64,000 nt of DNA from an uncultured Gemmatimonadaceae bacterium (GCA_963829055.1 CAWHHI010000004.1:672001-736000); one strand, 5' to 3'; counted from the stretch's first letter, positions 659-64,000 are shown. The notes: generated by a model not told the origin, from the letters alone. A program made the numbers and translations.

Positions 659-1667
659 ATGAAACGAGCGGTCGTGTGCGGAGCAGGCGGCTTCATTGCG
701 GGCCACCTCGTCAAGCGCCTCAAGCGCGACGGTTACTGGGTCCGCGGCGTCGATATCAAGGAGCCCGACTTCGCACCCACCGCGGCGGACGAGTTCCGCC
801 TCCTCGATCTGCGTGATATAGCCCAGTGCCGCGACGCCGTTTCGCCTGATGACGGATACCCGATCGACGAGGTCTACCAACTCGCCGCCGAGATGGGTGG
901 AATGGGGTTCATCAGCACGGCCGAGTGCGAGATCATGCGGAACAGCGCTCTCATCAACGTCAACATGCCGCAGGCAGCCGCCGAGGCGGGCGTTCAGCGC
1001 TACTTCCTGTCATCGTCGGTGTGCGTCTACCGCGACATGGCCATAGGCGAAGCCGAGATGACGGAAGACGAGGCGTATCCGGCGCACCCGGACAATGAGT
1101 ACGGGTGGGAGAAGCTTTTCGCCGAGCGCGTCGCGCTGGCCTACGGACGCCGCTATGGCACCGCGGTTCGTGTCGCGCGATTCCAGAACTGCTACGGGCC
1201 CGAGGGCACCTGGACAGGTGGACGCGAGAAAGCACCGGCGGCGATCTGTCGCAAGGTTGCTGAGGCGGAGGACGGCGGCTTCGTTGAGGTGTGGGGGGAC
1301 GGCACGGCCGTTCGCTCGTACACCTACGTCGACGATCTCGTCGACGGGATCGTGCGGCTCATGCGGTCCGATCTCGACGTGCCCGCGAACATCGGGAGCC
1401 CCGAGTACGTGAGCGTCCGCGAGCTCGTGGAAACCGTGATCGAGTTGAGCGGCAAGCAGATCGAGGTGCGCTACGTTCCTGGCCCGGTTGGCGTTCAATC
1501 GCGGAACTTCAGCAACGCGCGGATCTACTCACTTGGCTGGCAGGCCGAGCACCACGCTCCGCGACGGCATTGGCGTCACGTACCGGTGGATCGAGCAACA
1601 GGTGCGTGATCGCCTTACCGTGGTCGGCGACAGCTCGTCGGGTGCGCCCGAAAGCGCGCGACGTTAG
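659..1667 (+). CDS. NAD-dependent epimerase/dehydratase, GDP-mannose 3,5-epimerase-like; frameshift near 1552
   Basis: GAGGFIA Rossmann motif, YGWEK (YxxxK) and GGREKAPAAICRK. The natural C-terminus TLRDGIGVTYRWIEQQV continues in another frame to TAG at 1665-1667. Confidence 0.85.
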
Positions 1668-1695
1668 GCAGCCGCTTCGGTCGCGAACGCTGTCG

Positions 1696-2978
1696 ATGCG
1701 AAAGCCGCGCGTGCTGGTACTCGCACGCAACTATCCCAACAACGCCTTCCCGACGCTCGGGCTCTGGACCGAGCGTCTGGTGACGGCATCGTCGGCAGTC
1801 GCGGAGCCGACGGTCGTCGCGCCTGTCCCGTATGCACCGCCGTTCGCGCCGCTCTCATCAATGCGCCGTTTTCGGTCCGTCGAGCGCGTTCGGACCGACG
1901 CTGGAATCACGGTCCATCATCCCCGCGTTCCGGCTGGGCCGGGGCAGTGGCTCCACGCGTTCGACGCGCAACTCGGGTACGCGACGCTTCGGAAGGCGAT
2001 CGTCTCGCTCCACCGCGTGCAGCCGTTCGATGTCATTCATTCACACTTCATCTACCCCGAGGGTGTGATTGCCAGCCGCATTGGCGCGGAGCTCGGCCTG
2101 CCAGTCGTGTCCTCTGAGCATGCCATGTGGCGTCCGTGGCTCGACCGCCATCCGTCTGTGCGCCGGCAGGTCCAACGTGCACTACCAGGCATCTCGCGCG
2201 TGACCGCCGTCAGTGAGGCGCTGCGTTCGAGTATCCGTGAGCTGTTCGGCGACACCGTCGCCGGTTGACGTCATCCCGAACGTGGTCGACGAGCAGATTT
2301 TCGTCCTCCCGCGAGCGGACGAAGTGCGAGACCCGAATCACCTGCTGTTCGTTGGTCTCATTCGCCACGTGAAAGGCCTCGACGTCCTCATTCGCGCGCT
2401 CGGCCATCTCCTCCCGGAGTTCCCTGAGTTGCGCCTGTCGGTCGCGGGAGGATCCTTCTACCGGGCGTATGAGCGCGACGCGGCCGAGGTTCGCTCGTTG
2501 GTCCAGGGGCTCGGGCTTCGGGACCGCGTGGCGTTCCTCGGAGAGGTGGCACCAACAGACGTGGCGACACTGATGCGCCGCAGCGCGCTGCTGGTCGTTC
2601 CGAGTCGGCGGGAGACGTTTTCGCTGGTGACCGCAGAGGCGTTGGCGTGCGGGACGCCCGTTGTCGCGACGCGGTGTGGCGGTCCGGAAGAGATCATCAC
2701 GCCGGAGACAGGTGAGCTCGCGGATGTGGACGACGCGGCGTCGCTCGCAATCGCAGTCCAGCGAGCGCTGGGCCGCTCGTTCGACGGCCCAGGCCTGCGT
2801 CGTTATGCAGTGGACCGCTTCGGCACCGCCGCCGCCGCTCAGCGACTCGGCGTGCTGTATGGTCGCGTCGCTGGCGTCGCGCCAGCGGGCGCTGGCGCTC
2901 GCGAACCAGAACGATCGCGCGACGCTAGACGCAGCGCGCAATCACCTCGAATCGGCGACCGCCGGCGGACTACCGTGA
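1696..2978 (+). CDS. Glycosyltransferase family 4 (TuaC-like); frameshifts near 2262 and probably near 2870
   Basis: N-half MRKPRVLVLARNYP...IHSHFIYPEG; C-half LLFVGLIRHVKGLD...PSRRETFSLVTAEALACGTPVV. The likely true stop is TGA 2976-2978, overlapping the next ATG. Confidence 0.8.
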
Positions 2979-4121: not shown

Positions 4122-4910
4122 GTGAAGACAGTCCTGCTCGCCGGAGGACTCGGTACGCGTCTAGCCGAAGAGTCCGAGTCGAAGCCGAAACCGATGGTCG
4201 AAGTCGGCGGACGCCCGATCCTCTGGCACATCATGCGCACGTACGCCGAGCGCGGTTTCAAGGAATTCGTTGTCGCGCTAGGCTACCGAGGCGACGTCAT
4301 CAAACGCTATTTCCTCGACTATTTCTACCTGCGGAACAGCCTCAGCATCGACCTGCGAACCAACCAGATCGAAGTGCAGGGGTCGGACTGCGAGGACTGG
4401 GTGGTTCATCTCCGGGATACCGGGCTCGACACACAGACCGGTGGCCGCCTGCGACGCCTCGCCGACATGGTTCGTGGCGAGACGTTCATGATGACGTACG
4501 GTGACGGCGTGTGCAGCGTCGACCCACGCGCCTTGCTCGAATTCCATCGGCGACACGGCAAGCTGGCGACGGTGACGGCGGTGCGGCCGCCCGCACGGTT
4601 CGGCGGACTGGTGTTCGATGGCGACAATGTGGCCGAGTTCTCGGAAAAGCCGCAGGTCGGAGAGGGCTGGATCAATGGCGGATTCTTCGTGCTCGAGCCG
4701 CAGGTGCTCGACTATATCGACACCGACGACACGATCTTCGAGCGCTCGCCGCTCGAGCGTCTCGCCGCGGACGGCCAACTCATCGCCCATCGACACGAAG
4801 GCTTCTGGCAGTGCATGGACACACTGCGCGACGTTAGGCTGCTGAACAGTCTCTGCGACGGCAAGCTCCCGCCGTGGGATCCCGCCTACCAGCCAACCTC
4901 CGCGACGTGA
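4122..4910 (+). CDS. rfbF: Glucose-1-phosphate cytidylyltransferase
   Basis: LAGGLGTRLAEE..KPKPMVE, DTGLDTQTGGRL, TYGDG, WINGGFF and GFWQCMDTLRD motifs. Confidence 0.93.
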   Translation: MKTVLLAGGLGTRLAEESESKPKPMVEVGGRPILWHIMRTYAERGFKEFVVALGYRGDVIKRYFLDYFYLRNSLSIDLRTNQIEVQGSDCEDWVVHLRDTGLDTQTGGRLRRLADMVRGETFMMTYGDGVCSVDPRALLEFHRRHGKLATVTAVRPPARFGGLVFDGDNVAEFSEKPQVGEGWINGGFFVLEPQVLDYIDTDDTIFERSPLERLAADGQLIAHRHEGFWQCMDTLRDVRLLNSLCDGKLPPWDPAYQPTSAT

Positions 4911-5885
4911 CACCGCCCGATTTCTGGCGCGAACGGCGAGTCGTTCGTAACCGGCGCCACCGGGATCGTCGGATCATGGCTGGTCCGCGAGCTTCTGGCC
5001 AAGGGCGCCAACGTGGCCGTGCTCGTCCGCGACGCTGATCCGCAATCGGAGCTCCTTCGCAGCGGCGATCTCCAGCGGTGCACAGTATTCAACGGAAGCG
5101 TCGAGGACCTCTGGACGCTCGAGCGCGCGATCAGCCTGCACGAGGCCGAATGCGTGTTCCACCTCGCCGCGCAGACCATCGTCGGCGTCGCACACCGCAA
5201 TCCGTTCACGACGTTCGAGACGAATGTGCGCGGGACGTACAATCTCCTCGAGGCGTGTCGCATTCACAGCTCGGTCGTACACAGCGTTGTCATTGCGTCG
5301 AGCGATAAAGCCTACGGAGAAGTCGAGGCGTTGCCGTACGTCGAGACGATGCCTCTGAACGGAAAGCACCCGTACGAAGTCTCCAAGAGCTGTACGGATC
5401 TCATCTCGACGTCGTATTGCCACAGCTACGGCGTGCCGGTCACGATTGCTCGCTGCGGCAACATCTACGGCGGCGGTGACCTCAACTGGAGTCGCATCGT
5501 TCCGGGCACCATCCGCGCGTTCCTCCGCGGCGAACGACCGACGCTCCGCAGCGACGGAAGCTTCAAGCGCGACTACATCTACGTCAAGGACGTCGCGCAC
5601 GCGTACATGCTCCTCGGCGAGCGCGGGCGCGAACCGGCAGTGAAGGGTCAGGCGTACAATTTCAGCGACGAGTCGCCGCTGACTGTGCTCGACATCGTCG
5701 GCACGATCCGTCGGCTGATGGGCTCCGATCTCGAGCCCGACATCCGCAACGTCGCGCAGGGCGAGATTCGTGACCAGTATCTCTCCGCGGCGAAGGCGCG
5801 CGACAGCCTGAGCTGGCGAGCCACATACGATCTGGAAACCGGACTCGGCGAGACGATCGCGTGGTATCGCGCACTGCTCGCCTAA
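4907..5885 (+). CDS. rfbG: CDP-glucose 4,6-dehydratase-like; frameshift near 4942
   Basis: GTG 4907 gives [12 protein letters not shown], then [12 protein letters not shown] after a 1-nt shift. Also SSDKAY, PYEVSKS and [18 protein letters not shown]. Lies directly after rfbF. Confidence 0.82.
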
Positions 5886-5886
5886 C

Positions 5887-6860
5887 GTGGACTCGCTAGC
5901 GGGACGCCGCGTTCTCGTCACCGGCGCGGCCGGGTTTCTCGGATCCCACCTCGTTCCTCGGCTCATCGATCGCGGAGCCGCCGTCTGCGCCCTCGACCAC
6001 GCCGGCGCGCGCGGGTGGAGGCTGATCGAGCGGGCCGGTATCACCGCTGCGGTCCGCGCGGACGTCCGGACGCTCGCGGACGGAGCCCACGATCGCTTGC
6101 TCGGGCGTATCGACACCATCATTCACCTCGCCGCAATCGGTGTCCTGGGCGAAGTGCCTGACGTTCGCGACATGGTGACGACCAACGTCGACGGGACGGT
6201 CGCTGTGCTGCTCGCGGCGCAGCGGTCGCGCGCGCGAGTCATCTACTGCGGTTCGTGCTTCGAGTACGGCTCGGGTGCCAGGTGGACGGAAGATGCGCTG
6301 CCGGCGCCGACGAGCGAGTACGGCGCCGCGAAGGCCGCCGGTTGGCTCATTGCGCAGGCATTCGCGCGGCGAACGGGTCTGGAGCTCGTCTCGCTTCGAC
6401 CGTTCACGATGTACGGCCCGATGGAGCCACCAGGGCGATTGATACCGTCCGTCGTTAGGTACGCCCTGGCGGGACGACAGATCGACCTCACGCCCGGCGA
6501 TCAGGCCCGTGACTTCGTGTATGTCGAAGACGCCGCGGACGCGTTCGTCGCCGCGGCCACGACCGACGCTGCCATCGGCGGTACGTTCAACGTGTGCACG
6601 GGGAACGCGGCGACGGTTCGCGACATCGTCCATTGCGTTCTGCGGCGGACCGGCAGCACGTCAACGGCCCGCTTCGGCGCACTTTCGTACAGATCGACTG
6701 AGCTTCCGGTACTTTCCGGTGACACGTCACGCGCGGAGCAGATTCTGGGCTGGCGCGCCCGTGTGTCACTCGAAGAAGGGCTCGACCGAACGATCGCCTG
6801 GTTCCGTGCTGTCGGCGCCGGGCTTCCCGAATACCAACTGGCTGACGCTGCCGCTGACCG

Positions 6861-8241: not shown

Positions 8242-9355
8242 ATGACTTCTCCGTTCCGCGTCGCGGTCGTCGGCCTCGGTAACGCCGGGCACACGCTTCA
8301 TCTTCCTGCACTCGCGGGCATGACGGACGTGCACGTTGTCGGCGCATGCGACATCGATGCCGGTCGCCGAGAGCGTGCTGCGACGACGTGGAAAGTGCCC
8401 GTATTCGATGACTTCGAGGACATGCTCGCCCGCGCGAACGCGAACGTCGTGATCATCGGGACTCCGCCCGACTCGCACGCGAGCTACTGCCTCAAGAGCT
8501 TCGCCGCCGGCGCTCACGTGATCTGCGAGAAGCCATTCGTGTCGAGCCTCGACGAGGCTGACCGCGTGATCGCGGCAGGCGATGCGGCTGGGAAGCGCAT
8601 CGCGCTGAATCATGAGTTTCGTGAGATGCCCATCTTCCGCGCGCTTCGCGATGCCGCCGCGCCGAAGGACATCGTGTTCGCCCAGGTGTGGCAGCTCATG
8701 GACCTGCCGCCGTGGGCCGAGCCGGGATGGCGTGGGCAGATGTTGCAGCGAACGCTGTACGAGGCTGGCGTACACCTCGTCGACTTCCTGATGGCGTCTG
8801 TTTGGTGAAAAGCCACGCGCTGTGTCGGGGACTGTGTCGACGTGCGGGGTTCGTGAAGGTGATACCGACGCCGTGGCGCTCGTGACGCTCGAGTTCTCGC
8901 GTGGCCGACTCGCGCAGGTCGTGCAGAATCGGCTGTGCAAGGGCGAGACGCAGTACTTCGAAGTGCGCGCCGAAACGCTGAACGCGTCCCTCCGCGCGTC
9001 GTTCGGAGGACGTGCTCGCGTGACGGCCGGACTTCATCGCAGCACCCGCCCCCACGTGCGGCTCGACTATGGCGTTTCAGGGATGGCGTGGCGCGAGGTC
9101 GGGAACAACCGCACGTTGTTGGCGAGAAACCCGAAAGAGCCCGGCATGATCGCGACGCGATTCGTCTTCGAGAAAACGCTGGCTGCATTTCGAAGCGGCG
9201 GAGCACCGCCGGCGTCGGCGCAGGACGCGCGAGACGTGCTGGAGGTGATCGCCGCGTGCTACCACGCCGCGGCGACCGGGAAGCGCGTTAGGCTGGAAGG
9301 CAGCGCGCCGCCGGAGTTGTCCTCGATGAGAATGGGCGCCAGTCCGGCGGCATGA
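8242..9355 (+). CDS. Gfo/Idh/MocA family oxidoreductase; frameshift near 8800
   Basis: VVGLGNAG and ICEKPF in ORF 8242-8808; ORF 8822-9355 continues the C-terminal domain. Confidence 0.8.
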
Positions 9356-10362: not shown

Positions 10363-10884
10363 CAGGTAGCCCTGCGTCGTTCTCATTTTCGCGAGCGAGT
10401 AGCGACATGGACCCGCCGGTAGGTCCAACCGCTTCGCGCGGATACATCGTCTGTGGTCTCGACCGAATCGATGCGATGCGCCGCGCCGACTTGTTTTCGT
10501 TACGAACGGGAGCGAGGCGGGAATCCAACATCAGTTGGGGCACGTCCGCGACAGTCTCGGTCGGAAGGAGCGACTTTTCGTCCCGCGTCCAGCTCGCATG
10601 CTTCTCAGGCGGTTGTCAGAATTTCCGGGCAAATGTGGCATTTCTAACCAACCCATAACCGAAAACGTCGCGATACTTGGCAGTTGAAACGCTGCAATCT
10701 CCAGCGGTCCATCGGAACGCTTTGTGCCCACGGTCACGTCCACGACACCGCAGTTCGCACGTTTGCGCAGTGACTGCAAACTGGTTCGAATGTGTGACTT
10801 GCGTTTTCGTTAGGCACTTCTCATTATGCGCCGCCCGGTTGTTGGACCACGCCGGTGTTTGGGAACCACGCAAATGAAAGTGCC

Positions 10885-10990
10885 AGGATACTCGCGCTCC
10901 ATGTCACGGTCATGCGACGCGACGGAAAGACGTGTTTTTCGCCAACGCAGTAGTCGTGGGATCACAACGAGACTGGAGATTGAGACACAC
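10885..10990 (+). promoter_or_regulatory. Conserved leader, copy 1 (putative -10 GATACT, stem-loop and RBS)
   Basis: Nearly identical to 12474-12575 over AGGATACTCGCGCTCC-x-TGT-x-ACGGTCATGCGACGCGACGGAA...GATCAC...GACTGGAGA. Confidence 0.55.
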
Positions 10991-11874
10991 ATGCAAATGA
11001 ACAGAGTCGCGCTCATCGCGAGCGCAGGGTTCGGACTGGCCTTCCTGGCCGCGTGTTCCGATTCGCCGACGTCGCCGTCCAACGCCGCGTTCGTTCCGAA
11101 GTCCAGCTTCGCCGTCGGCGACATTACCGACGCAGCACTCCGGCAGCTCGGGAAGGTCAAGATCTGCAAGGCCGGAAACATTGGCGGAAGCTTCGACGTT
11201 ACGCGTCAACGCCATCGGAGGGTCGACTGGGACTGTCTCCGGCCTGAACACGCTGATCACAAACGGTCAGTGCAAGATCGTCGCGGAGGACCAGAGCGGG
11301 TCCGGCGTCGGCTCGGAGGTTGATCATCTCGGAAGATGCAGCCGCCAACGTGGTTTCCAGCGTTACCGGGTGCGTCTTCATCGGCAATCCTGGCGGAATC
11401 GATGCCGCCCCGTGCGCATTCAACCCGACCAGCCGGTTCATCAACCAGTTCCACGGGTACGTGATCACGTACACCAACACCTTCACGCCGCCGCCGTCGA
11501 CCGGCTGCACGTACACGAAGGGCTGGTACCGGAACAACGGCTCGAACACGATCATCGCCGTCGATGGCCGGACGATTGGCCAGGAGCAGCAGATCTTCGA
11601 CGCGACGCCTGGCAAGCCGGGCAACGTGACGTGGGGCGCTGACAACAACAACCTCAATCTCTATCAGCAGCTCCTCGCCGCGCTCAACAACCTGGGTGGG
11701 AACGCCACCGCCGGTCCGGCGGCCGTTGACGCCGCCGTCGCGGCAGCGCTCGCCGCTACGAGTGGGTCGGGCACGACCATCGTCGTCGCTCCTGGGACGG
11801 ATGTGAGTGGCCTGATCGACGTACTGAGCGCCTTCAACGAAGGCACGTTCACGGGCTGGCCGCACTGCGATTGA
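10991..11874 (+). CDS. Uncharacterised secreted lipoprotein, paralog 1; frameshifts near 11205 and 11320
   Basis: Lipobox LAAC-SDSP. Shares KICKAGN, FINQFHGYV, GCTYTKGWYRNNGS, NLYQQLLAALN and FNEG..G.PHCD* with the intact paralog at 12576. Confidence 0.8.
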
Positions 11875-11905
11875 TCGCGCAGCCGGTGTAGTCCAGAATG
11901 TACGG

Positions 11906-11942
11906 AAGCGGGGCGGCCAAATTGGCCGCCCCGTTTTCTTTT
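11906..11942 (+). terminator. Rho-independent terminator
   Basis: GCGGGGCGGCCAA-A-TTGGCCGCCCCGT followed by a T-rich tract. Confidence 0.85.
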
Positions 11943-12473
11943 CAGTCGAGAGCTGAGCATTGGAAGGAGCGGGGCACATTGCCTCGCTCTTTTTTTGTCC
12001 GCACTCTCTGGCCGCGCCGCTTGCGGCTTGTTCCAGTCGAACAACCTGAGGGCGTGCCGCAACGGTTGCGTTAGGCCTTTCCACACTTGTATGAGCCACG
12101 GCGTTCGTGCGCGCGACGCCCGGCGCCTAACGGCCCGAATCGCGTCCGTGTGGGGCAGTCATTCCGACCGCCTCGCCGGCTATCCGGAGCTCGTGAATTG
12201 GGGCGCGCGGGAGGTGTGTCAGCGGTATCGCCGCTCCGGTCAGACATATTGGCCTAACCTCGCCGCGCTCTCCCGCCCAGCCCAACCTAACGGCCCATCC
12301 CGGCGGAATACTTCGTGCTTTTCCTCACCCTCACGAGGCGGCAAATCGCACGAGTTCTTGCGGAATGCGTGCAGCGTTGACGCAGTGACTTGTGCTCTTG
12401 TTAGGCGGTTGTCGTGATTTGCGCCCGTTGGACTGTCGGCCCACTCGCGTTGTGGCCGCCGACTGGTTGGATG

Positions 12474-12575
12474 AGGATACTCGCGCTCCGTGTGACGGTC
12501 ATGCGACGCGACGGAAGAATGTGGTTTCGCCCCGCAGCAGCCGTTCGATCACTACAGACTGGAGACTCGGAAAGA
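12474..12575 (+). promoter_or_regulatory. Conserved leader, copy 2
   Basis: Paralogous to 10885-10990; ends in a GGAG RBS before the ATG at 12576. Confidence 0.55.
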
Positions 12576-13511
12576 ATGCGAATGAACAAGCAGGTTGCGC
12601 TCATGGCGGGCGCTGGGCTCGGAGCAGCGTTCCTCGCAGCATGTTCGGATTCACCGATGGAGCCGAGCGCGTCATCGGCGTTCGTGCCGAAGACGAGCTT
12701 TGTGGTCGGCGCAGTTACCGCCACGCCGGCGCCGGAAGCGGTGACGGGCAAGATCGTCGTTTGCAAGACCGGTAACGCCGGCGGCTCGTTCACGTTCACG
12801 CGCTCGACCGAAGGGCCGAACATCGTTGCCAGCAGTTATGTCGGCGGCGGTGCCGCTAGCGTCTCGGGCGTCAACATCGCCGTGAACACGTGCCTCGAGA
12901 TCGCCAACGATGACAGCCCGAGCGGCAGCGGCTCGCACATTACGGTAACGGAAGCCCCCGCGGCCAACACGGTGCAGACGATCACGGCCTGCCGCTTCCG
13001 TGGCTATGCGCTCGACGGCGTCACGCTCAACGCGCCGGAGAACTGCGTCTACGTCAACGGTGGCGATCTGTTCCTGAACCACTTCCACGGCTACGTGGTC
13101 ACGTACAACAACGTGTTCACCCCGCCGCCCCCGCCGCCGTCCGGCTGCACGTACACGAAGGGCTGGTACCGCAACAATGGCAGCGAGACGGTCAAGGCGG
13201 TCGACGGTCGCTCCAAGGCTGAGGCGCAGAAGATCTTCGATGCGACGCCTGGCAAGCCGGGTGGCGTGACGTGGGAGGGCAGCAACGACGTTCTCAACCT
13301 CTACCAGCAGCTCCTCGCGGCGCTCCTGAACGGCGGCGCGACGTCCGGAATCACCGCGGTCACCGACGCTATCACCGCTGCCCAGAATGGCACGGGCGGT
13401 ACCGGGCTGGCCATCACGACGAACCTCTCGCAGGCGCAGGTCAGTGCCCTGATCAACACCCTCAGTTCGTTCAACGAGGGCTCGTTCGAGGGGTTCCCTC
13501 ATTGCGACTGA
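12576..13511 (+). CDS. Uncharacterised secreted lipoprotein, paralog 2 (intact, about 311 aa)
   Basis: MRMNKQVALMAGAGLGAAFLAAC signal peptide and lipobox, beta-rich Cys-containing N-domain, poly-Pro linker, and C-domain GCTYTKGWYRN...PHCD. Confidence 0.88.
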   Translation: MRMNKQVALMAGAGLGAAFLAACSDSPMEPSASSAFVPKTSFVVGAVTATPAPEAVTGKIVVCKTGNAGGSFTFTRSTEGPNIVASSYVGGGAASVSGVNIAVNTCLEIANDDSPSGSGSHITVTEAPAANTVQTITACRFRGYALDGVTLNAPENCVYVNGGDLFLNHFHGYVVTYNNVFTPPPPPPSGCTYTKGWYRNNGSETVKAVDGRSKAEAQKIFDATPGKPGGVTWEGSNDVLNLYQQLLAALLNGGATSGITAVTDAITAAQNGTGGTGLAITTNLSQAQVSALINTLSSFNEGSFEGFPHCD

Positions 13512-13533
13512 TCTCGGAAACGAATTGATGACC

Positions 13534-13572
13534 AAGAGCGGGGCGGCCATATGGCCGCCCCGCTCTTCGTTC
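13534..13572 (+). terminator. Rho-independent terminator (perfect palindromic stem)
   Basis: AAGAGCGGGGCGGCCAT|ATGGCCGCCCCGCTCTT; same stem sequence as 11906. Confidence 0.85.
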
Positions 13573-14125
13573 GTTCCTCCTCTACTCGCACAACCTGGCG
13601 TGCGAGGTGGCGCGTCAGCGGTCCCGGTTCGTCATGCGCGTTGCCTAACGTTGCGCGGCATCCTGCGGAGCGCTGGGCCGGGGATGCTCGTCGGCGCCCA
13701 GTCCACCGTAACCGGCAGAATGGTAATCGCCCGAGGCCGGGTGATTACGCCGGCGCGGACACAAGGTCCGACCCTGCACCATTTGAGCGGCTCCGGCGCC
13801 TCACGTTAGGCAACGTGCTCGGCGCTCGACCATGCCCGGGCGTCGGCACACGTGCGGCGGCCAGCCACCTGGTGGCGCCAGAGGTCGGCAGCGGAGCGGG
13901 TCCCGGAGCCCTGAGAGGGAAGCCGCAGACGGCTTGTGCTTTCATTCGACAATTTTCATAATACCGCGCCTCCAGGGCCGGGTGCATTGCGCCTGGTCTC
14001 GGCAGTCGAGCGATAGTGCGCCGTTGCCACGGTGCCTGCGGCTCCGGAGGAAAACCCCTACCCAAGGCGGTGCGGCATTCTCAGCCGTTTGGTAGCACGA
14101 TCACACCCGTAGCGAGAGGTACAGG

Positions 14126-19221: not shown

Positions 19222-19268
19222 GTGCTGGAACTTCACGCCGACGTTAGGCGAATGAAGCCAAGGCAGTC

Positions 19269-24986: not shown

Positions 24987-24994
24987 GCCCGCTC

Positions 24995-43765: not shown

Positions 43766-43803
43766 CGTTTCATGCTGTTGGCGCCAGGCGCGCCAACGCG
43801 ACG

Positions 43804-45554: not shown

Positions 45555-45612
45555 GGGTAGAACAATAACGGGGCGTGAACGCTCACGGGAAACGCCCCCG
45601 TGCCGACAGACG

Positions 45613-51186: not shown

Positions 51187-51246
51187 TCCACAGGGCGAAA
51201 AGCGTACCCGTCAATTGTCGAGCGGGGCAGCTGTCCTGCCAGCTGC

Positions 51247-51687
51247 CTAACGACCGAGAATCCGGTCGATGGTCGTGCGGAGCTTCGAGAATTCGAATGG
51301 CTTCTCGATAATCTCGCACGACGTCTCGCGCGCGAAATCCGCCGCCTCATCGGAGACGAGGTCGCCCGTGGAGAAGACGAGGCGGGGCAGGACTTCGGGG
51401 CAATCCTTCTCGATGCGGTCGTGCAGCTCGATACCGGAGAGGCCAGGCATCCGCAGGTCGGACACCACGAGCGAATAGGGAGGCGTTGCGCGCTGGCTTC
51501 GGTCGTGGAGGATCATCTCGAGCGCTCGGCCACCGTCGCCGGCCTCTTCCACTTCCCAGCCCATTCGCGTGAAGAATCGTCGCAGGGCGATCCGGATTGT
51601 CGACTCGTCATCGACGACCAACACGCGTGGCGGCGTGATCGACGGCATTCGGTTGGTCGGATCGGGCTCGTTTGTGCGCTCCATCAC
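51247..51687 (-). CDS. Single-domain response regulator
   Basis: LVVDDE, SDLRMPG and KPF. Confidence 0.88.
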   Translation of the reverse strand: MMERTNEPDPTNRMPSITPPRVLVVDDESTIRIALRRFFTRMGWEVEEAGDGGRALEMILHDRSQRATPPYSLVVSDLRMPGLSGIELHDRIEKDCPEVLPRLVFSTGDLVSDEAADFARETSCEIIEKPFEFSKLRTTIDRILGR

Positions 51688-56170: not shown

Positions 56171-56566
56171 CTACTGCTTCGCGAGCACCACCTGCACGCG
56201 CGACCCGCCGAACGTGTCGTCCGCGACCAGCAGGTTGCCGGCGACCTGGAATGAGAGGTCCTGGATGAAGATGTCGGACGGGACGCCGTCGATCTTCACC
56301 TCGCCTTTCGTGATCTTCCACGTGCCCGCGAAGTCCTTATCGACTGCTTTACGCGGGATGGTAGCGTGACCGCGCACTGATCCCGCTGGATCGAATGCCG
56401 CGGACAGCGACCCGCCGGACTGCAGGATGTTGTCGGCGCCTAACGCGGTGGTCACCGTGAACGTGGTCGCGCGGTAGCTGCCGGGGACGTGCAGGGCCGT
56501 GGGCGATTCCGAGTTGTTTTCCCTGCATGCAGTGCCTAACAAAAGCGTGCCCATCGTCGCGAGCAT
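56171..56566 (-). CDS. Hypothetical lipoprotein
   Basis: LLLGTAC lipobox-like signal followed by a beta-rich domain. Confidence 0.65.
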   Translation of the reverse strand: MLATMGTLLLGTACRENNSESPTALHVPGSYRATTFTVTTALGADNILQSGGSLSAAFDPAGSVRGHATIPRKAVDKDFAGTWKITKGEVKIDGVPSDIFIQDLSFQVAGNLLVADDTFGGSRVQVVLAKQ

Positions 56567-56600: not shown

Positions 56601-56969
56601 CTACGTGTCTTTTCGAGCATTGCTCGCCTCGTCCGAATAGCCTTCGGGATAGCGACGACTGAGCTTCGCGAGATTCACGGCCGCTATTTCATCGAGCGAT
56701 ACGCCGAGTGCGCCGGCCGCCGCCGTTAGGCACCAGAGCGCGTCGCCAAGCTCCGTCACGAGCCGCACGACGTCGAGCTCGTGGTGCATGAACGCGTGCT
56801 TGCGTACGAGCCCGAGTGCCTCGCCTGCTTCCTCCGCCAGCCCAGCGGTCGCGTCGAGTAGACGCTGATCACGTGGGAGCGCTGTATTGAGTGTGCGAGC
56901 GGCGAGACGCTGGTACTCGACGAGCGTGAGCGGAGCGTGGTCGGGGCCACCAGTTCGCGAGTCACTCAT
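56601..56969 (-). CDS. MazG-like nucleoside triphosphate pyrophosphohydrolase
   Basis: YQ..A.RT, GLAEEAGE, ELGD.LW and N.AKL..RYP.G. Confidence 0.88.
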   Translation of the reverse strand: MSDSRTGGPDHAPLTLVEYQRLAARTLNTALPRDQRLLDATAGLAEEAGEALGLVRKHAFMHHELDVVRLVTELGDALWCLTAAAGALGVSLDEIAAVNLAKLSRRYPEGYSDEASNARKDT

Positions 56970-59526: not shown

Positions 59527-60453
59527 GTGAGTTACCTGCTGTTCGCCGACGATAACGAGGACATGCGGTTGATGCTGCGTGACCTCTTTCACTCGTCGGG
59601 GCACGAGGTCAGCCTGGCCGAAGACGGGCTCGCTGCTCTCGCGTCGATCCGCGAACGCGAGCCCGACCTTGTCATTCTCGACCATAGCATGCCGGGAATG
59701 TCAGGGTTCGAGGTGTGTCGAAACGTGAAGCGAAATCCATTCACGTCACGCATCCCGGTACTCATGTTGACGGCACAATCGGAGATCGAAAGCAAAATCG
59801 AAGGGTTCGCTGCAGGCGCCGACGATTATCTCGCCAAGCCATTTGATCCGCGCGAACTGCGGGCGCGAGTCTCAGCGTTGCTCAGACTGGTGGAGCGCGA
59901 GGGTGACCGCAACCCGACCAGTGGCTTACCCGGCGGGCACGCGATCGAGAAGGAGATCGCGCGCCGAGTCGGGAAGGCGGAACCGTTTGCCGTATGCTAT
60001 CTCGATCTGGATAACTTCAAGGCGTTCGCTGATACGTTCGGCTTCGCCACTGCCGATATCGTCATTCGCGGACTGGGGGCGGCGATCCGAGATTCCGCAT
60101 ACGCCATCGCGGGTGAGGGCGGGGGCGACTTCGTCGGCCACATTGGCGGCGATGACTTCATCGTTGTCACCACGGAACCGCACGGCGAGGCGATCGTCAA
60201 GGAATGCGCGCGCCGGTTCCGCGATGTGATCGCGCGCGCGGTCGGTGATGAGGCGGCCGAAAGCGGGTACTTCACTGGCGTCGATCGCGACGGCCACATC
60301 AAGCGCTTTCCGCTGGCTCACGTGTCGGCCGCAGTGATGCTCGTACGTCCGGAGTGCTGGGTCAATCTCGCGCACTTCGGGATGGCGGCCGCAGACGCCA
60401 AGCGTCGCGCGAAGCAGCAAGGTGCCGGGAGCATCCTCGTCGAGACGGTGTAG
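59527..60453 (+). CDS. Response regulator REC-GGDEF
   Basis: REC (ADDNE, LDHSMPG, KPF), NPTSGLPG, DLDNFKAF.D and HIGGDDF. Confidence 0.88.
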   Translation: MSYLLFADDNEDMRLMLRDLFHSSGHEVSLAEDGLAALASIREREPDLVILDHSMPGMSGFEVCRNVKRNPFTSRIPVLMLTAQSEIESKIEGFAAGADDYLAKPFDPRELRARVSALLRLVEREGDRNPTSGLPGGHAIEKEIARRVGKAEPFAVCYLDLDNFKAFADTFGFATADIVIRGLGAAIRDSAYAIAGEGGGDFVGHIGGDDFIVVTTEPHGEAIVKECARRFRDVIARAVGDEAAESGYFTGVDRDGHIKRFPLAHVSAAVMLVRPECWVNLAHFGMAAADAKRRAKQQGAGSILVETV

Positions 60454-60506
60454 CTCGTCGGGAGATGGGATTGGGAAGTGGGTCAAACGCATCGACAACG
60501 CCGGCA

Positions 60507-60722
60507 ATGCTCAAACGGGAAGCGCCACGCACCAAAAGCGAGTACGTCTATCGTCGCAAGCTCGAGCCGCAGGAGCTGCTACCCGCTCTTGGCGTCGCTG
60601 TGGGCGTTGGTGCGTTCGCCTTCTACGTCGCATACCTGTTCCTCCAGCGCACACCGCTCGACCCGAACACCATAGCCGCGACGACGCCACGCAGACGACT
60701 GTCCAGCGGGGCGTCCGACTGA
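60507..60722 (+). CDS. Small single-TM hypothetical protein
   Basis: YVYRRKLEPQELLPALGVAVGVGAFAFYVAYLFLQRTPL; TGATG overlap with the downstream gene. Confidence 0.6.
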   Translation: MLKREAPRTKSEYVYRRKLEPQELLPALGVAVGVGAFAFYVAYLFLQRTPLDPNTIAATTPRRRLSSGASD

Positions 60723-63044
60723 TGGAGTGGCGCCGAGCGCTGCTCGCACTCGGCTTGGTCGTCGCTGGTCACTGCGTGGTCGCTCCGGCAACGTTGTCGG
60801 CGCAGGACATCGCGTGCGACAGCGGCGACCTCGAAGTCGTACGGGTCGGCTTCAGCGGGAACACCGCGTTCCCCGACGCGCAGCTCGCGAATGGGCTCGT
60901 GACGACTCCGTCCACGTGGGCGCGGCGCATGTTCCGCATCATCGGCACGAAACACTGTCTCGACACGGCAGAGGTCAAAGTAGATCCCGTCCGGCTGCTG
61001 CTGCTGTATAGCAGGCACGGGTTCACGGGTACCAAGGCTGCGGCGCGCATCGATACGGTGGCGCCCGGAAAGGTCTCGGTGGTGTTCGGCATTCAGGAAG
61101 GTGCGCCGATCATCCTCCAGCAATTCACGATCACGGGGCTCGATTCGGTCCCTCGAAGCGATCGGATCACGGCGGGGCTGCCAGTCAAAGTGGGCGCGCG
61201 GTTCGACCAGGTCGCGGTCGAGGCATCGCGCGACACGATCCTGCGACGGCTCCGTGACAACGGGTACCCGAACGCGGACCTGCTGCGTAGCTACGAGTCG
61301 GACACGGCGAGGCGCGTCGCGACGCTGAAGCTCGACGTGGCCACAGGTCCGCGCGCACGCATCGGTGCCGTGAACGTCGCGGTAACACCGCGCGACGGAG
61401 AGCATCAACAGATCTCCGACGATCGCGTCCTCAGCACGCTCGGCTTCGAAACTGGCGATCTGTATCGCGAGCGTGAGCTCGAAGACGCGAAGCGCGCGTT
61501 GTATCTGTCGGATGCCTACCGCCACGTCGAGGTGACGCCGGATACGACGAGTCTCTCGTCAGCGGGAGACTCTACGATCGACGTCAACGTCTCGCTCGCC
61601 GAGAGCTACATGCGGTCGCTGCGTCCTTCGGCGGGATGGGCGACATTGGACTGCTTCCGGACGCAGGTCGACTATTCGGACTTCGCGTTTCTTGGCGCGC
61701 TTCGGCGCCTCGACGTGAGTGCCCGCGCCTCCAAGATCGGCGTCGGCTACCCGACGGACCTGGACGGCTCGATGAAGCAGCTGTGTTCGGCCAGCGCGCG
61801 GAACGACACGTACAGCGATACGCTCAACTACTACGTGGGTGCAACGCTCCGTCAGTCGTCGCTGTTCGGGCTGCGCGCCGTGCCGACGATCACGTTGTAC
61901 AGCGAATTGCGTTCGGAGTACAAGGTATACGTACGGTACACGCCCATCGGCACCATCCTGTCGCTCAACCAGCAGCTTCGCCCCACGCTCGGCGCCACAT
62001 ACGCGTATCAACTCGAGTACGGACGAACGAGTGCAGAGCCAGCGATTTTCTGTGGTGTCATCGGCGTCTGTGATGTCAACGAACAGAACCTTCTGAAACG
62101 GTCGCAGCGTCTCGCGACGGCGAGTGTCACGTTCGGTCGCGATCGGCGGAACGACGCGTTCTATCCGACGGCAGGCTCCTCGATGTCGCTGGAGCTGCGC
62201 ACTGCCAATGAGGCTCATCGGGTCCGACCCCGATCTGCAGTTCAACAAGATCGTGGCGGACGCGAGCTGGTACTGGGCGCTCCCTAAGAACTCGGTGCTC
62301 GCTGCACGCGTCCGCGCTGGCCTGGTCGTTGGACAACGTATTTCTCTCGGCACGTCCGAGACGGTGTTCATTCCCCAACAGGAGCGGCTGTACGCGGGCG
62401 GCGCGAACACCGTTCGCGGCTACAGGCAGAACGAGCTGGGGCCGGTGGTCTATCTTCCGGATACGCTCCAGGTCTGCATCGCACCAAAGGGAGTCTGCGT
62501 CGAACCAACCGCGGCGGCGATGGACACCGTGTACTTCACATCGAAGCCCAGCGACTCGCCGCGCACGCTACCAGTGGGTGGTAACACCGTCGTCGTAGGC
62601 AACCTCGAGCTCCGCATGCCGAGTCCCTACATTCCCGACCGGTTGCAGATCGCGTTCTTCGCGGACGCGGGGCAGGTATGGACGCGTGGTGGCACAGGCG
62701 CCGAGGAATCGTTCGGCGGCCTGAAGGTCACGCCAGGGTTCGGTATGCGACTGGCGTCGCCGGTCGGGCCAATTCGGTTGGACGTCGGCTTCAACCCGTA
62801 CAACCGGAAGTCGGGCTCAGCGTACTTCGATGCGCCGGCGAGCGGTGGAGAGGCGCCGCTGTATTGCATCAGCCCGAACAACGGCCTTCCGGTCACGGGG
62901 TGGGTTCGCAACCCTGAGCCTGACGCCAAACCGCCCACGCAGGCGATTCCCCCGGGTGGATGCCCGACGTCGTACGAGCCGACCAAGAGCAACGGTTTTT
63001 TCCGGCGCCTGAGCTTCCAGGCGTCCATCGGGCAGGCGTTCTGA
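60722..63044 (+). CDS. Omp85-family outer membrane protein (TamA/BamA-like); frameshift near 62210
   Basis: Signal peptide, POTRA-like repeats (GFSGN, LRDNGYP), YAGGANTVRGY motif, SPVGPIRLD and C-terminal SIGQAF. Confidence 0.88.
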
Positions 63045-63057
63045 GCCTCGGAGACGC

Positions 63058-64000
63058 GTGACTCGACGCCGACTCGTCGTTATCTCGAGCGCTGTCTCGA
63101 TACTCGGACTCGGTCTCGTCGCCGCGCTGGCGGTCGTGAGCGTGCTCAAGACGCAGCTCGGGCGGAATTTCGCGCGTGACTACGTCGCGCGACTCATCGC
63201 GCCGCGCATCAAGGGCAAGGTGTTCGTCGGGAGCATCACGAGTCTCTCGTTCGGCAGTGCGTCTATCGACTCCGTCGAGATTCGCGGACCGGACGACTCG
63301 TTGTTCGTCGCCGCGGGCCGCCTAACGGTTCGGCTCGATCCGCGCGATCTGCTCGACAAGCGCCTGCTGCTGAGTCTCGTGGAGATCGACCGTCCCGTCG
63401 TGCACTTCCGAAAGGACGCAAACGGCAAGTGGAACTACAAAGGCATCTTCGCGACGGGTCCGAGCAAGAAGCGGGTGCCGGGTGCGGAGCGTGGGTGGGG
63501 TGAGTATTTCGTGGCGGACTCGCTCATCCTCCGACACGGGACATTCCTGCTGTCCATGCCGTGGCACCCGGATGACTCACTGCATGGCGCCAAGCGCGAC
63601 AGCGCGATCGCGCGAAACCTCACGCGAAAGGACAAGGTCATCAACCGCACCGCGTCGGGGTTCGAGCGCACGTGGCGGTGGGAGAACATCCATCTCGTGT
63701 CCGGCTACACGCGTCTCGCCGATCCTGATAGCGTGGGTCGCCTGGTCCAGATCGCGAAACTCGACGCCGACGAATTCGATCCGCCGTTCAACTTTCGGAA
63801 CGTGCGTGGCGGCGCGCGGCAGACCGCCGATTCGCTGTGGCTCGACCTCGTGCACTTCGACCTGCCGGGATCGACCGGGAAAGGCGGCTGGCAAGGTCTG
63901 GTGGGGTGGCCCGGACCCGACGAAGTACGACCTGCGCATCGTCGGCGACTCGGTGTCGCTCGCCGACGTCAACTGGGTCTATCCGACGCTGCCGACGACG
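63058..64000 (+). CDS. TamB/AsmA-like translocation and assembly protein (5' part; runs off the window; possible frameshift near 63890)
   Basis: GTG 63058: MTRRRLVVISSAVSILGLGLVAALAVV signal anchor, then beta-rich sequence (..LVEIDRPVVHFRKDANGKWNY). Directly downstream of the TamA-like gene. Confidence 0.75.
   Translation, partial: MTRRRLVVISSAVSILGLGLVAALAVVSVLKTQLGRNFARDYVARLIAPRIKGKVFVGSITSLSFGSASIDSVEIRGPDDSLFVAAGRLTVRLDPRDLLDKRLLLSLVEIDRPVVHFRKDANGKWNYKGIFATGPSKKRVPGAERGWGEYFVADSLILRHGTFLLSMPWHPDDSLHGAKRDSAIARNLTRKDKVINRTASGFERTWRWENIHLVSGYTRLADPDSVGRLVQIAKLDADEFDPPFNFRNVRGGARQTADSLWLDLVHFDLPGSTGKGGWQGLVGWPGPDEVRPAHRRRLGVARRRQLGLSDAADD

Follow-up and report, generated by a model that had tools for sequence, protein, structure and literature searches.

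The octamer GCCTAACG, best read as a double-strand DNA tag rather than as a motif of proteins, RNA or repeat elements, recurs throughout the genome of an uncultured Gemmatimonadaceae bacterium, where it is imposed against codon usage and kept at orthologous sites. Only few genome words are known to be hyper-abundant, and all of them have opened new biology, such as self-specific DNA uptake with USS and DUS, recombinational repair with Chi and chromosome segregation with KOPS, while the role of HIP1 is still debated after 30 years. The present word is a strong new case, enriched 20-50 fold in the poorly studied soil phylum Gemmatimonadota, and it combines three unusual properties, as it is the same in separate lineages without dialects, is spelled like the end of an integron cassette site and fills some phages. 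The initial annotation of the window (the whole stretch of 64,000 nt that was analysed) had proposed a DNA-level word under selection or drive, comparable to DUS, USS and HIP1, and this general kind is supported by our data; literature searches agree with its view that the word has not been described in this lineage.

Abundance and position of the word

An exact-match search of the window for GCCTAACG/CGTTAGGC bore out the 33 copies first counted there, 16 on the plus and 17 on the minus strand, spanning 1662 to 63327. Dinucleotide-preserving shuffles of the window (n=100) gave a mean of 1.15 copies (sd 1.01, max 4) and never reached 33. The window has 49 CCTAAC/GTTAGG cores, 33 within exact words and 16 elsewhere, and all 16 positions listed earlier as near-copies are such cores with one flank changed. 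The earlier density of about one per 1.3 kb holds for exact and near-copies pooled but not for exact copies alone, which occur at 1 per 1.94 kb compared to about 1 per 1.56 kb genome-wide. In the whole genome (G000, an assembly 86% complete), 5004 exact copies were found, spread over all 20 contigs (7,784,024 bases), and the strand balance claimed for the window extends to 2457 forward versus 2547 reverse words. Order-3 and order-2 Markov nulls predict 257 (z about 296) and 102 words, respectively, which corresponds to 19-49x over-representation, and the word is the top 8-mer of the genome. All nulls used (Markov, synonymous-codon and dinucleotide) were exceeded. GCCTAACG differs from its own reverse complement, being a non-palindromic octamer, and its flanks carry almost no information, so the copies are not pieces of a longer repeat, in agreement with the initial annotation. 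Genome-wide, one-mismatch variants of the core are mostly depleted (0.2-0.8x), and the enriched variants comprise only flank variants, GCATAACG and GCCTGACG.

The signal lies on the DNA rather than on protein or codons. In G000, words on either strand occupy each of the four open reading registers, as well as non-coding DNA, and only the two stop registers are avoided (9 copies versus 622 at random positions). The coding and non-coding proportions match those of random positions (nc/nc 21.3% versus 22.3%), and the density is flat along genes and over codon-adaptation quintiles. In 4245 confident genes there are 2643 coding words, whereas synonymous-codon shuffling leaves 110 +/- 9 (n=20, max 123), and half of the TTA codons (1112/2199) lie inside the word. 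A base-calling artefact is an unlikely source of the words, since just 9/5002 copies form in-frame stops within coding sequence compared to about 620/5000 random positions, since the fragmented assemblies of relatives carry the word and since contigs from 16 studies contain the window's stretch.

The individual copies in the window illustrate this use of registers. Val-Arg is encoded (C GTT AGG C) by the minus-strand words at 4832-4839, within a nucleotidyl-transferase gene (4122-4910, plus), and at 9286-9293, within an ORF at 8822-9355 (plus), and by the plus-strand word at 49402-49409 with its AGG codon, within a GlcD-like FAD oxidase gene (48149-49579, minus). The Pro-Asn register (G CCT AAC G) is used at 18729-18736 (plus) in a response-regulator/GGDEF gene (18181-19131, plus), and by minus-strand words at 32100-32107 in a ThiF/MoeB-like gene (minus strand; assigned by local frame), at 47528-47535 in an FAD-binding oxidase gene (46938-48263, minus) and at 49060-49067 in the GlcD-like gene. 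Leu-Gly (CG TTA GGC on the coding strand) results from plus-strand words in minus-strand frames: 20835-20842 in a Wzz-like gene, 35621-35628 in a VWA-domain gene, 42377-42384, 47790-47797 with its TTA codon in the FAD-binding oxidase gene, and 56438-56445 in an ORF at 56171-56566. Leu-Thr (GC CTA ACG) is found at 44020-44027 (minus) in a glycine-cleavage T gene (minus strand), in a copy private to G000, and at 63320-63327 (plus) in a DUF748-type ORF (63058-63999, plus). Further words lie at 23931-23938 (minus), within a histidine-kinase ORF (23695-25323), and at 29521-29528 (minus), within a small methyltransferase gene (29318-29956), the latter present among the aligned genomes in G000 only.

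Several words provide the stop codon of a gene. TAA stops are given by the plus-strand words at 5880-5887 (stop 5883-5885; dehydratase/epimerase gene 5013-5885) and 26285-26292 (stop 26288-26290; class-V aminotransferase gene), and by the minus-strand words at 38277-38284 (cytidylate-kinase-like gene 38279-38902, minus) and 48147-48154 (the GlcD-like gene). TAG stops come from the plus-strand words at 33359-33366, in which CTA at 33361-33363 ends an ORF at 33361-34242 (minus) and which is kept within the genus, at 38910-38917 (GNAT acetyltransferase gene 38912-39517, minus) and at 51245-51252 (response-regulator gene 51247-51687, minus). At 25318-25325 (minus) the word ends the histidine-kinase ORF with TAG (25321-25323) and at the same time reads Val-Arg in an overlapping aminotransferase ORF. 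Upstream of, downstream of or between genes, minus-strand words are positioned at 1662-1669 (53 nt past the end of an NAD-epimerase gene, 674-1609), at 10808-10815 (non-coding, with the first of a duplicated pair of lipoprotein-like genes following about 180 nt downstream), at 19242-19249 (20 nt past the end of the Wzz/tyrosine-kinase-like gene, 19269-21776, minus) and at 56724-56731 (between the ORF at 56171-56566 and an ABC permease gene), and the non-coding DNA between the two lipoprotein-like genes holds one at 12069-12076 (minus) and one at 12125-12132 (plus). The words at 13643-13650 (plus) and 13804-13811 (minus) pair with each other as the left and right ends of a well-folding 169-nt element (13643-13811).

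Conservation, spacing and spread among relatives

In within-genus comparisons 20/26 word sites were conserved, compared to 18-20% of all 8-mers at 79-81% identity, and this site conservation speaks for selection or drive on the word. Gains relative to the ancestral sequence changed 2-5 positions, some of them non-synonymous, and at the word sites of rich lineages the word-poor genomes have GCCGAGCG-type sequence. The word at 32100-32107, for example, is kept in four other aligned members of the genus and in G014, while other genera read CGTTSGGC, and the one at 35621-35628 is kept within the genus with GCCGAGCG-type sequence in word-poor genomes. The word at 42377-42384 is kept in G001, G005 and G014 and replaced by GCCGAGCG in G293 and G008, and at 30035-30042 (plus) G001 has GCCTGACG and G003 GCCGAGCG.

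Spacing between words is more even than Poisson (CV 0.93). Compared to chance, intervals below 200 bp occur at 0.19-0.55x, those of 0.5-1.5 kb at 1.26x and those of 3-10 kb at 0.67-0.9x, so that the spacing is quasi-regular and every word is surrounded by a zone of about 200-250 bp in which others are rare; short-range exclusion was absent for two control 8-mers. Like Chi and KOPS, the word is an asymmetric 8-bp sequence over-represented on the chromosome, but its replichore polarity is almost nil, about 53:47, with large contigs balanced, and its enrichment is far stronger than that of Chi. Bins with GC-skew above zero hold 776 forward and 884 reverse words and those below zero 1324 and 1258, and these near-even counts agree with the earlier distinction from replichore-polarised sites.

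The word was expected also elsewhere in the genome and in relatives, and it is found throughout G000 and in 10/31 relatives and 16/401 Gemmatimonadota genomes that are word-rich, defined as having at least twice the reversed-control count. The trait is patchy and graded, from about 10 to more than 6000 copies among related genomes, and within one genus G293 has 4141 words versus 66 in G289. The spelling is identical in every rich lineage among the 401 genomes, with G014, the densest carrier, and G010 both enriched for the same GCCTAACG, and the positions are lineage-private. No alternative hyper-abundant 8-mer was detected in 100-kb samples of six word-poor relatives.

USS and DUS are the uptake sequences of Pasteurellaceae and Neisseriaceae, and in the latter the minor pilin ComP recognises DUS. 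The present word resembles them as a short non-palindromic word found about once per kb on both strands, in any open register and against codon preference, with sites that are conserved yet turn over, spacing that is more even than random and competence core genes present. Uptake sequences are missing from foreign DNA, and the present word is absent from three foreign-looking blocks of 31-50 kb but dense in at least two genuine phage contigs. In contrast to USS and DUS, it has no dialects but one word in every rich lineage, equals the attC end, fills phage contigs, forms no terminator-type inverted pairs and belongs to another phylum. HIP1 (GCGATCGC) of cyanobacteria is, according to PMC5861425 and PMC13756078, an octamer over-represented 15-300x, and a role in DNA uptake or horizontal transfer has recently been put forward for it after its function had long been unsettled. 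Our word shares with HIP1 the over-representation in genes and spacers, the conserved sites that speak for selection and the non-random spacing. HIP1 differs in being a palindrome read by two methyltransferases and in occurring phylum-wide, whereas the word here is asymmetric and patchy within one order, G000 lacks matches to three main DNA methyltransferase families and no Vsr was found in the word-rich genomes.

Integron ends and phage contigs

The boxes R'' and R' of attC sites have the consensus RYYYAAC / GTTRRRY, which is matched by GCCTAAC/GTTAGGC. In word-poor relatives with genuine attC arrays next to IntI, R'' reads GCCTAACG in 29/36 sites, and R' has GTTAGGC in 27/33, of which 26 are TGTTAGGC; on the other strand this is GCCTAACA, which is 15x enriched genome-wide. 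The word is therefore identical at every letter to the R'' box and the base that follows it in this order's own attC sites, an identity absent from the initial annotation. G000 also has an intact IntI (C20:208041-208958, 265.7 bits) adjoined by a few attC-like sites. However, the approximately 5000 words are singletons without partner box, hairpin, cassette or nearby integrase, and the genomic words arose through substitution within conserved genes; they are found within ordinary genes of all 20 contigs, while the single intI is on C20, which means that there is no cassette-array setting. In attC sites R'' and R' form inverted boxes 57-141 nt apart that fold into a hairpin. Close inverted word pairs, however, are depleted, not enriched, in G000, GTTRRRY is no commoner downstream of words than upstream, and the folding energy of 120 nt at words equals that of random genomic DNA. 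Possible hairpin exceptions are the element at 13643-13811 in the window and, on C20, a small number of sites next to intI.

The word fills at least two genuine phage contigs, within structural genes and at or above the density of the putative hosts; the contigs were located with a probe requiring two words. Contig L273 has 31 words in 17 kb, 17 of them in ORFs versus 1.3 expected, with 22 forward and 9 reverse, and in L341 there are 16 within 14 kb. Phages and islands usually contain few uptake sequences, and Chi, a self tag, can occur in phages too. Word-filled phages fit better with a tag needed by any DNA in these cells than with transformation drive.

The putative reader and possible explanations

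The range from about 10 to more than 6000 copies among related genomes makes a putative reader findable by phylogenetic profiling and the question directly testable. No gene tracked the trait among IntI, Vsr, three DNA methyltransferase families, RecC, AddAB-like nucleases, FtsK-like translocases, VirB4 and competence genes. ComEC occurs in 31/31 genomes, and DprA, a ComEA-type HHH domain (HHH_3) and secretin in 5/5 (the HHH_3 match in G000 is weak, 35 bits), but the competence genes do not discriminate because they are equally present in word-poor genomes, leaving the uptake-type readers first proposed without gene backing. A methyltransferase or repair reader, suggested at the same time, fared no better: G000, at 86% completeness, has no match to PF00145, PF01555 or PF02384 at E<=1e-5, no C5 methyltransferases were found in G014 and G293 (the panel's only ones are in word-poor G289), and Vsr has three matches among 31 genomes, all word-poor, and none in any word-rich genome. 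The readers of Chi are RecBCD or AddAB; in a further difference from Chi, RecC was found in 0/5 genomes, and AddAB-like genes do not track the word, as PF12705 is present in 12/31 genomes, including word-poor G008, G009, G011 and G016, and a pair was not found in word-rich G014. FtsK, whose gamma domain recognises KOPS, is single-copy in word-rich and word-poor genomes alike. IntI exceeds the cut-off in 18/31 relatives, at least 11 of them word-poor; it is intact in 5/5 complete word-rich genomes, and in G014 it is split into three frame-shifted pieces.

We tentatively favour the word as a self-DNA tag like USS, DUS and HIP1, which may be placed and kept on essentially all resident DNA of this genus, and of a small number of further Gemmatimonadota lineages, by selection or transfer-biased drive. 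A putative sequence-specific protein would read the duplex word, DNA with a word every 0.5-2 kb would be favoured on exchange or retention (uptake, recombination or survival of incoming DNA), and new words would in this way spread and old ones be kept. USS and DUS act by this mechanism, which has now been proposed for HIP1 as well. The missing reader, the lack of dialects among relatives and the word-dense phage contigs speak against this, and in a plain uptake model the R'' identity serves no purpose; the fixed spelling common to the word and attC ends suggests that the putative reader belongs to the integron world or targets it. The words could then be duplex attC/attI R boxes, the binding sites of IntI or of a protein that derives from IntI or is associated with integrons, and spread via an IntI-dependent process, such as DNA capture or exchange at R boxes or a chromosomal role of bound IntI, which we find possible but rather doubtful. 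All eight letters are shared with the R'' end plus one base, R'-type GCCTAACA is enriched too, the integrase is intact in G000 and the complete word-rich genomes, a reader conserved across the order would account for the same word in separate lineages, and chromosomal integron integrases act on DNA acquired by transformation, according to PMC12614218. Yet IntI is common in word-poor relatives and fragmented in the densest carrier, and IntI1 requires only GWT on genomic double-strand sites, as stated in bioRxiv 10.1101/2022.09.11.507474. Imprecise excision at such sites gives deletions, not substitutions, the natural attC variant seen most often, GTCTAAC, is under-represented in the genome (24 copies, 0.42x), the singletons have neither R' partner nor extra folding, and IntI gives no reason for the word in phages. 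Phages are better accommodated if a nuclease, a helicase-nuclease or a defence system of the host leaves word-bearing DNA intact or makes it more stable, Chi-like without replication polarity, since the chromosome and surviving phages would then both be selected for dense words. The word-filled structural genes, the word-free foreign-looking blocks, the conserved and evenly spaced sites and the 22:9 skew of L273 are in line with such protection, but the nearly absent chromosome polarity, the failure to find RecC in five genomes, the patchy AddAB-like pairs, the missing reader and the merely putative hosts of contigs found with a two-word probe make it unlikely.

A link with integrons would also arise if the word were the recognition tag of a DNA-acquisition or retention system aimed at integron cassettes, with some Gemmatimonadota having evolved or repeatedly switched on a reader of the duplex attC end, so that cassette-end DNA is preferentially taken up or kept. 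We regard this as decidedly unlikely; if true, genomes and resident phages would be driven to about one cassette end per kb as an automatic by-product, natural DNA exchange and integrons would be joined by one 8-bp address, and the same spelling in separate lineages would be explained. Very improbable is a mutation or repair bias, the explanation initially offered for HIP1, in which a methyltransferase with a mismatch nuclease, or other repair, turns near-words into the word on any replicating DNA. Depleted core variants beside a hyper-abundant word, the graded trait and words in phages, which could reflect amelioration in the host, suit such a bias, whereas no Vsr was found in word-rich genomes and no match to the three methyltransferase families in G000, independent conversions would not give even spacing and short-range exclusion, gains alter several positions at once, non-synonymous ones included, and site conservation favours selection, as is argued for HIP1 in PMC5861425. 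It is similarly hard to believe that the word is a chromosome-structuring site bound every 0.5-2 kb by an abundant nucleoid-associated or DNA-wrapping protein. The lack of strand, gene or replication polarity, the exclusion zone with quasi-regular spacing and the uniform density over coding and non-coding DNA and expression classes would be expected of it; however, it has no candidate protein, the contrast between G293 and G289 sits oddly with a core architectural system, the lineage-private positions imply no conserved positional role, and the attC identity and the phages are left unexplained.

The word also has a practical use as a sharp marker of self versus foreign DNA in these metagenome-assembled genomes. 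Three blocks of 31-50 kb in G000 are without the word and foreign-looking, all at contig ends, and their genes for FtsK, FolD, PepA and DAHP-synthase have second copies elsewhere at 46-59% identity. These three contig ends are likely the result of chimeric assembly.

Abundance, reading frame and spacing of the octamer

The octamer GCCTAACG, counted together with its reverse complement and called the word here, occurs 33 times in the window (16 on the + strand, 17 on the - strand), in line with the at least 33 counted by eye in the initial annotation, and the 16 near-copies named there were all genuine when their coordinates were checked. In 100 dinucleotide-preserving shuffles of the window 1.15 exact copies were expected, the largest value being 4. 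The window holds 49 CCTAAC cores, 33 of them within exact words. The genome under study (G000; 7,784,024 bases, 20 contigs, 66.5% GC, 86% complete), of which the window is C4:672001-736000, contains the word 5004 times, 2457 times in forward and 2547 times in reverse orientation, and the balance between strands first noticed in the window thus extends genome-wide. The word is present on all 20 contigs at 0.48-0.80 per kb and no other 8-mer of the genome is as strongly over-represented, with 257 copies expected from an order-3 and 102 from an order-2 Markov model; by raw count it ranks 18th of 32,697 8-mers despite its TAA content. The sequence flanking the copies holds almost no information, and therefore the word is not part of a longer repeat, in agreement with the initial annotation; a longer repeat or MITE as its source was rejected on these grounds. 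No literature describing the word as a genomic signature was found, the best 20 of 478 text matches being primers or oligonucleotides. The citrate synthase of the window has its closest named relatives in Gemmatimonadota MAGs, at 76-80% identity.

Genes were called with a simple codon-usage caller and the local reading frame was classed on both sides of each copy. All four stop-free registers are occupied; with the same frame on both sides, CG-TTA-GGC (Leu-Gly) accounts for 783 copies, G-CCT-AAC-G (Pro-Asn) for 497, GC-CTA-ACG (Leu-Thr) for 320 and C-GTT-AGG-C (Val-Arg) for 231. The two registers with an in-frame stop hold 9 copies versus 622 at random positions. DNA without a clear frame also carries the word, and the split between coding and non-coding DNA equals that of 5000 random positions (non-coding on both sides 21.3% vs 22.3%). 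In 4245 confident genes we found 2643 copies versus 110 +/- 9 expected (maximum 123) in 20 within-gene synonymous-codon shuffles, and the enrichment therefore stands against the codon-aware null that the initial annotation had called for. Rare codons are drawn in by the word, which contains 1112 of the 2199 TTA, 473 of the 2515 CTA, 348 of the 3950 AGG and 710 of the 5650 CCT codons of these genes. It also supplies 138 of 556 TAA and 102 of 1155 TAG stops in the genome, among them the stops of the window genes ending at 5885, 26290, 38279, 38912, 48149 and 51247. Its density stays flat from one codon-adaptation quintile to the next (0.50-0.63 per kb) and from the start to the end of genes. A protein motif was rejected as its meaning, as four registers are used on both coding orientations; the word is a DNA-level signal.

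Only eight of the 24 one-mismatch variants counted in the genome are enriched. These are ACCTAACG (827 copies, 17x), GCCTAACA (435, 15x), CCCTAACG (428, 9x), GCATAACG (583, 7.7x) and GCCTGACG (1763, 2x), together with the remaining flank variants GCCTAACT, TCCTAACG and GCCTAACC, in which enrichment is mild (3.1x, 2.5x and 2.1x). The ratio for the other core variants is 0.2-0.8x; CCTAAC is a strict core, without any build-up of decayed words.

A systematic base-calling error would place in-frame stops within genes. A consensus base-calling artefact is unlikely to lie behind the word and was rejected, because the word keeps out of registers that would give in-frame stops and is found in independent assemblies as well, including fragmented assemblies of relatives in 300-1170 contigs. 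Positions 30001-40000 of the window recur in contigs from rhizosphere, soil and sediment samples (20 runs, 16 studies), at least half of their 31-mers being present in 18 of the 20 runs.

Replichore polarity, which would have moved the word towards known polarised motifs, is nearly absent. Bins with positive GC skew hold 776 forward and 884 reverse words, and those with negative skew 1324 and 1258. Chi and KOPS are replichore-polarised, whereas the orientation of the word barely tracks GC skew, and it is therefore unlike either. The copies are spaced out (CV 0.93, one internal gap above 20 kb being excluded from the spacing statistics): gaps occur at 0.19x below 50 bp, 0.26x at 50-100 bp, 0.42x at 100-150 bp, 0.55x at 150-200 bp and 0.81x at 200-250 bp, those of 0.5-1.5 kb are in excess (1.26x), and those of 3-10 kb are depleted (0.67-0.9x). 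No short-range exclusion was seen in two frequency-matched ordinary 8-mers. Close pairs are depleted to a similar degree in all four orientations, and the words thus do not form inverted pairs of a terminator or attC type.

Conservation, spread and word-free DNA

Positions 27000-46999 of the window were aligned with syntenic DNA of ten genomes, four from the genus and six from other genera. In the alignments with the four, where nucleotide identity is 79-81%, the exact word is kept in 20 of 26 site comparisons, against 18-20% for 8-mers in general; the comparisons are non-independent, since they all draw on the 8 alignable word sites among the 9 in the stretch. G014, a word-rich relative from outside the genus, keeps the word at 2 of 4 sites versus 11% of 8-mers. 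Differences at word sites are substitutions, not indels. Word positions in this stretch are mostly private to each rich lineage: 37545 and 40333 in G300; 36359, 41760, 42735 and 46496 in G319, the first three common to G014; and 32407, 33036, 35821 and 38693 in G293. In the word-poor G289 and G008 no word was found at any of 31 sites, the usual sequence there being GCCGAGCG, which reads Leu CTC-Gly on the other strand. G293 (4141 words) and G289 (66 words) belong to the same genus by placement and are 74% identical over an aligned 14.7 kb, where each of seven G293 words stands opposite a G289 sequence with 1-5 differences.

We call a genome word-rich when it has at least twice as many words as copies of the reversed control. 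The word is shared by related genomes, as the initial annotation had proposed to survey: 10 of the 31 closest genomes are word-rich, namely all seven of the genus, with 2501-5112 copies each, and also G014 (6360 in 5.1 Mb), G010 (605) and G030 (345), while the rest have 6-194 words versus 42-433 for the reversed control. Phylum-wide, 16 of 401 genomes reach the ratio, 13 of them in one family (f1; genera g1, g30, g33, g37, g39, g40, g42, g43 and g45) and three in genus g73 of a second (f2), with none in families f4-f12. Of 80 named loci from other phyla that were compared, not one is rich in the word. Both genome tallies take in the unpublished genomes G013, G079, G118 and G199, and no claim is made on any of these singly. 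In 100-kb samples no hyper-abundant 8-mer was found in the word-poor G008, G029, G020, G017, G028 and G026, and the top 8-mer of G014 (93 copies) and G010 (9 copies) is the same word; there are therefore no dialects.

Three blocks of 31-50 kb at contig ends of G000 are free of the word, C6:5440-55037 (GC 0.70) and C6:591808-623330 (GC 0.73), both above the genome average, and C11:1-46789, where GC is not raised (0.66). They encode housekeeping genes, many of them fragmentary, and their FtsK, FolD, PepA and DAHP-synthase have second copies elsewhere in the genome at only 46-59% identity; G000 is alone among 101 family genomes in having two full FtsK matches (PF01580). The blocks are probably foreign DNA, acquired by chimeric assembly joins or old transfer. 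Both 16S genes also lack the word. The word is a sharp marker of self and foreign DNA in this MAG. A likeness to a universal 16S rRNA stretch was rejected, the 16S genes of G000 being without the CCTAAC core. There are nearly no multi-copy mobile elements in the genome, whose 19 repeated regions add up to 48 kb.

Integron sites and phages carrying the word

The few copies in word-poor relatives form same-strand arrays at 400-700 bp spacing, some of which adjoin integron-integrase matches. Typical attC sites lie on G021:C80, G021:C95, G019:C26 and G019:C3, two such relatives; each is an imperfect palindrome, about 90 nt long, starting with GCCTAACG and ending with GTTAGGC. To score the end boxes without reference to their own sequence, the inner arms were used as anchors, 3 of 39 being false. 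The R'' box is spelled GCCTAACG in 29 of 36 sites, GTCTAACG in five and otherwise in two, and the R' box GTTAGGC in 27 of 33 (preceded by T in 26) and GTTAGAC in six. Low-GC contigs of the viral collection (IMG/VR) have same-strand arrays with the identical R'' spelling. On L210, L233, L254 and L234 of this collection, some at GC 0.30-0.43 and up to 198 kb long, the GCCTAACG arrays are spaced at about 400-600 bp and have the look of integron cassette arrays, the contigs being large viral ones or else misclassified.

An integron integrase (IntI) of G000 itself lies at C20:208041-208958, scoring 265.7 bits against a cut-off of 265, and a few attC-like sites adjoin it. An attC site has paired boxes and a hairpin, whereas the other approximately 5000 words of G000 have neither R' partner nor fold: GTTRRRY is equally frequent upstream and downstream of them, and the folding energy of the surrounding 120 nt is that of random genomic 120-mers. 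As singletons of this kind they were rejected as attC sites. GTCTAAC, the commonest natural attC variant, is depleted in G000 (24 copies).

In the window, a 169-nt non-coding element at 13643-13811 is closed by two inverted words and folds at -49.6 kcal/mol (z = -4.2; none of 200 shuffles as good). It follows directly on a lipoprotein-like gene and its terminator, and may represent an attC-like site, over-long and standing alone. Upstream of it, at 10800-13560, two paralogous genes of lipoprotein-like type stand in tandem (about 10990-11874 and 12577-13511). Neither has a Pfam family; their upstream leaders are nearly identical, and both have GC-rich terminator hairpins. The GTTAGGC with which each unit begins, about 180 nt upstream (at 10810 and 12400), recalls a cassette boundary. 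The pair at 12285-12406 folds no better than shuffles.

The viral collection was probed with word pairs, a sample biased towards word carriers, and a few of the contigs so obtained proved rich in the word in both orientations. L273, a complete contig of 16,975 bp with scaffold, portal, and large and small terminase genes, has 31 words, more copies than of any other 8-mer; of these, 17 fall in 11 ORFs versus 1.3 expected (maximum 4) in 200 synonymous shuffles. L341 has 16 words in 14.2 kb of its 28.5 kb, with genes for small and large terminase, portal, protease, major head protein and adaptor, and L251 has 10 words in 10.4 kb with phage replication genes. A portal-based search for relatives of L273 recovered only L273 itself. 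The closest cultured phages are only 30-44% identical and therefore give no host; there is no related prophage in G000, and 200 family genomes gave two short weak matches only. Among 31 phage ORFs, Pfam revealed no lifestyle marker or shared DNA-reading enzyme.

Candidate readers of the word

These results show the word to be a tag in duplex DNA. It overrides codon usage, is conserved between genomes, keeps its copies apart and is absent from foreign-looking DNA; its spelling is always the same and is identical to the R'' end of attC sites in the order. By analogy with USS/DUS and HIP1, a sequence-specific reader may favour tag-bearing DNA during exchange or retention. In USS/DUS systems tagged DNA is favoured, and the word would have the same role; for HIP1 such a role is now proposed (PMC5861425 and PMC13756078), and PMC13756078 applied phylogenetic profiling to it. 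The fixed spelling in separate lineages, the identity with attC and the saturated phages argue against a plain uptake sequence, and point to an integron-linked reader or to a tag needed by any DNA in these cells.

Candidate readers and writers were tested by co-occurrence with word richness. That IntI itself reads the word would fit its intact gene in all five complete word-rich genomes, but a TIGR02249 search found it above cut-off in 18 of 31 relatives, of which at least 11 are word-poor, and in G014 it lies in three frame-shifted pieces; this reading is weakened, as IntI does not track the word. According to bioRxiv 10.1101/2022.09.11.507474, IntI1 needs only GWT at genomic sites and imprecise excision deletes DNA. 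Writing of words by cassette insertion and excision was rejected on this basis, as the sites differ by substitutions without indels and imprecise excision gives deletions. A solo IntI N-terminal domain at C4:2862-3170 was also rejected as reader; it is a truncated remnant of about 104 residues that ends in stops, found only in G000 and, at a contig edge, in G002.

A Chi-like protective tag is weakened in that RecC (PF04257) is found in none of five genomes, and AddAB-like PD-(D/E)XK pairs (PF12705) occur in 12 of 31 genomes, word-poor ones included, and were not found in the word-rich G014. A repair bias is weakened too: Vsr (PF03852) is present in 3 of 31 genomes, all word-poor, and the 7.8-Mb G000 has no match to the three major methyltransferase families PF00145 (C5), PF01555 (N6_N4) and PF02384 (N6_Mtase), none of which tracks the word; the only C5 enzymes of the panel are in the word-poor G289. 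An orphan methyltransferase and competence genes had been suggested as correlates in the initial annotation. ComEC is found in 31 of 31 genomes and DprA, the ComEA-type HHH domain and a secretin in five of five, and none of these tracks it as a reader would. Neither does FtsK/SpoIIIE (PF01580), present once per genome and twice in G000, and VirB4 (PF03135) was found in 3 of 101 genomes, none word-rich. The tallies of IntI, ComEC and FtsK take in the unpublished G013, G425 and G426. A nucleoid protein site was also weakened by test; it and the other three rivals are less probable readings, not refuted ones.

Some further observations lie outside the word. A BamA-like outer-membrane protein at 60422-63044 of the window is split over two overlapping frames (POTRA ORF 60422-62287, Omp85 ORF 62124-63044), and only the C-terminal part of a molybdopterin oxidoreductase is present at 41061-42191; both may be assembly frameshifts or real breaks. 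A second over-represented family of about 14 nt, with the core CGCTCGGAATGACA, occurs in G000 with no copy in the window (818 copies of CGGAATGAC and 481 of CTCGGAATGACA). Of the 481 CTCGGAATGACA copies, 441 lie outside called genes, without a tie to gene starts. The family is possibly a REP-like or regulatory intergenic element.
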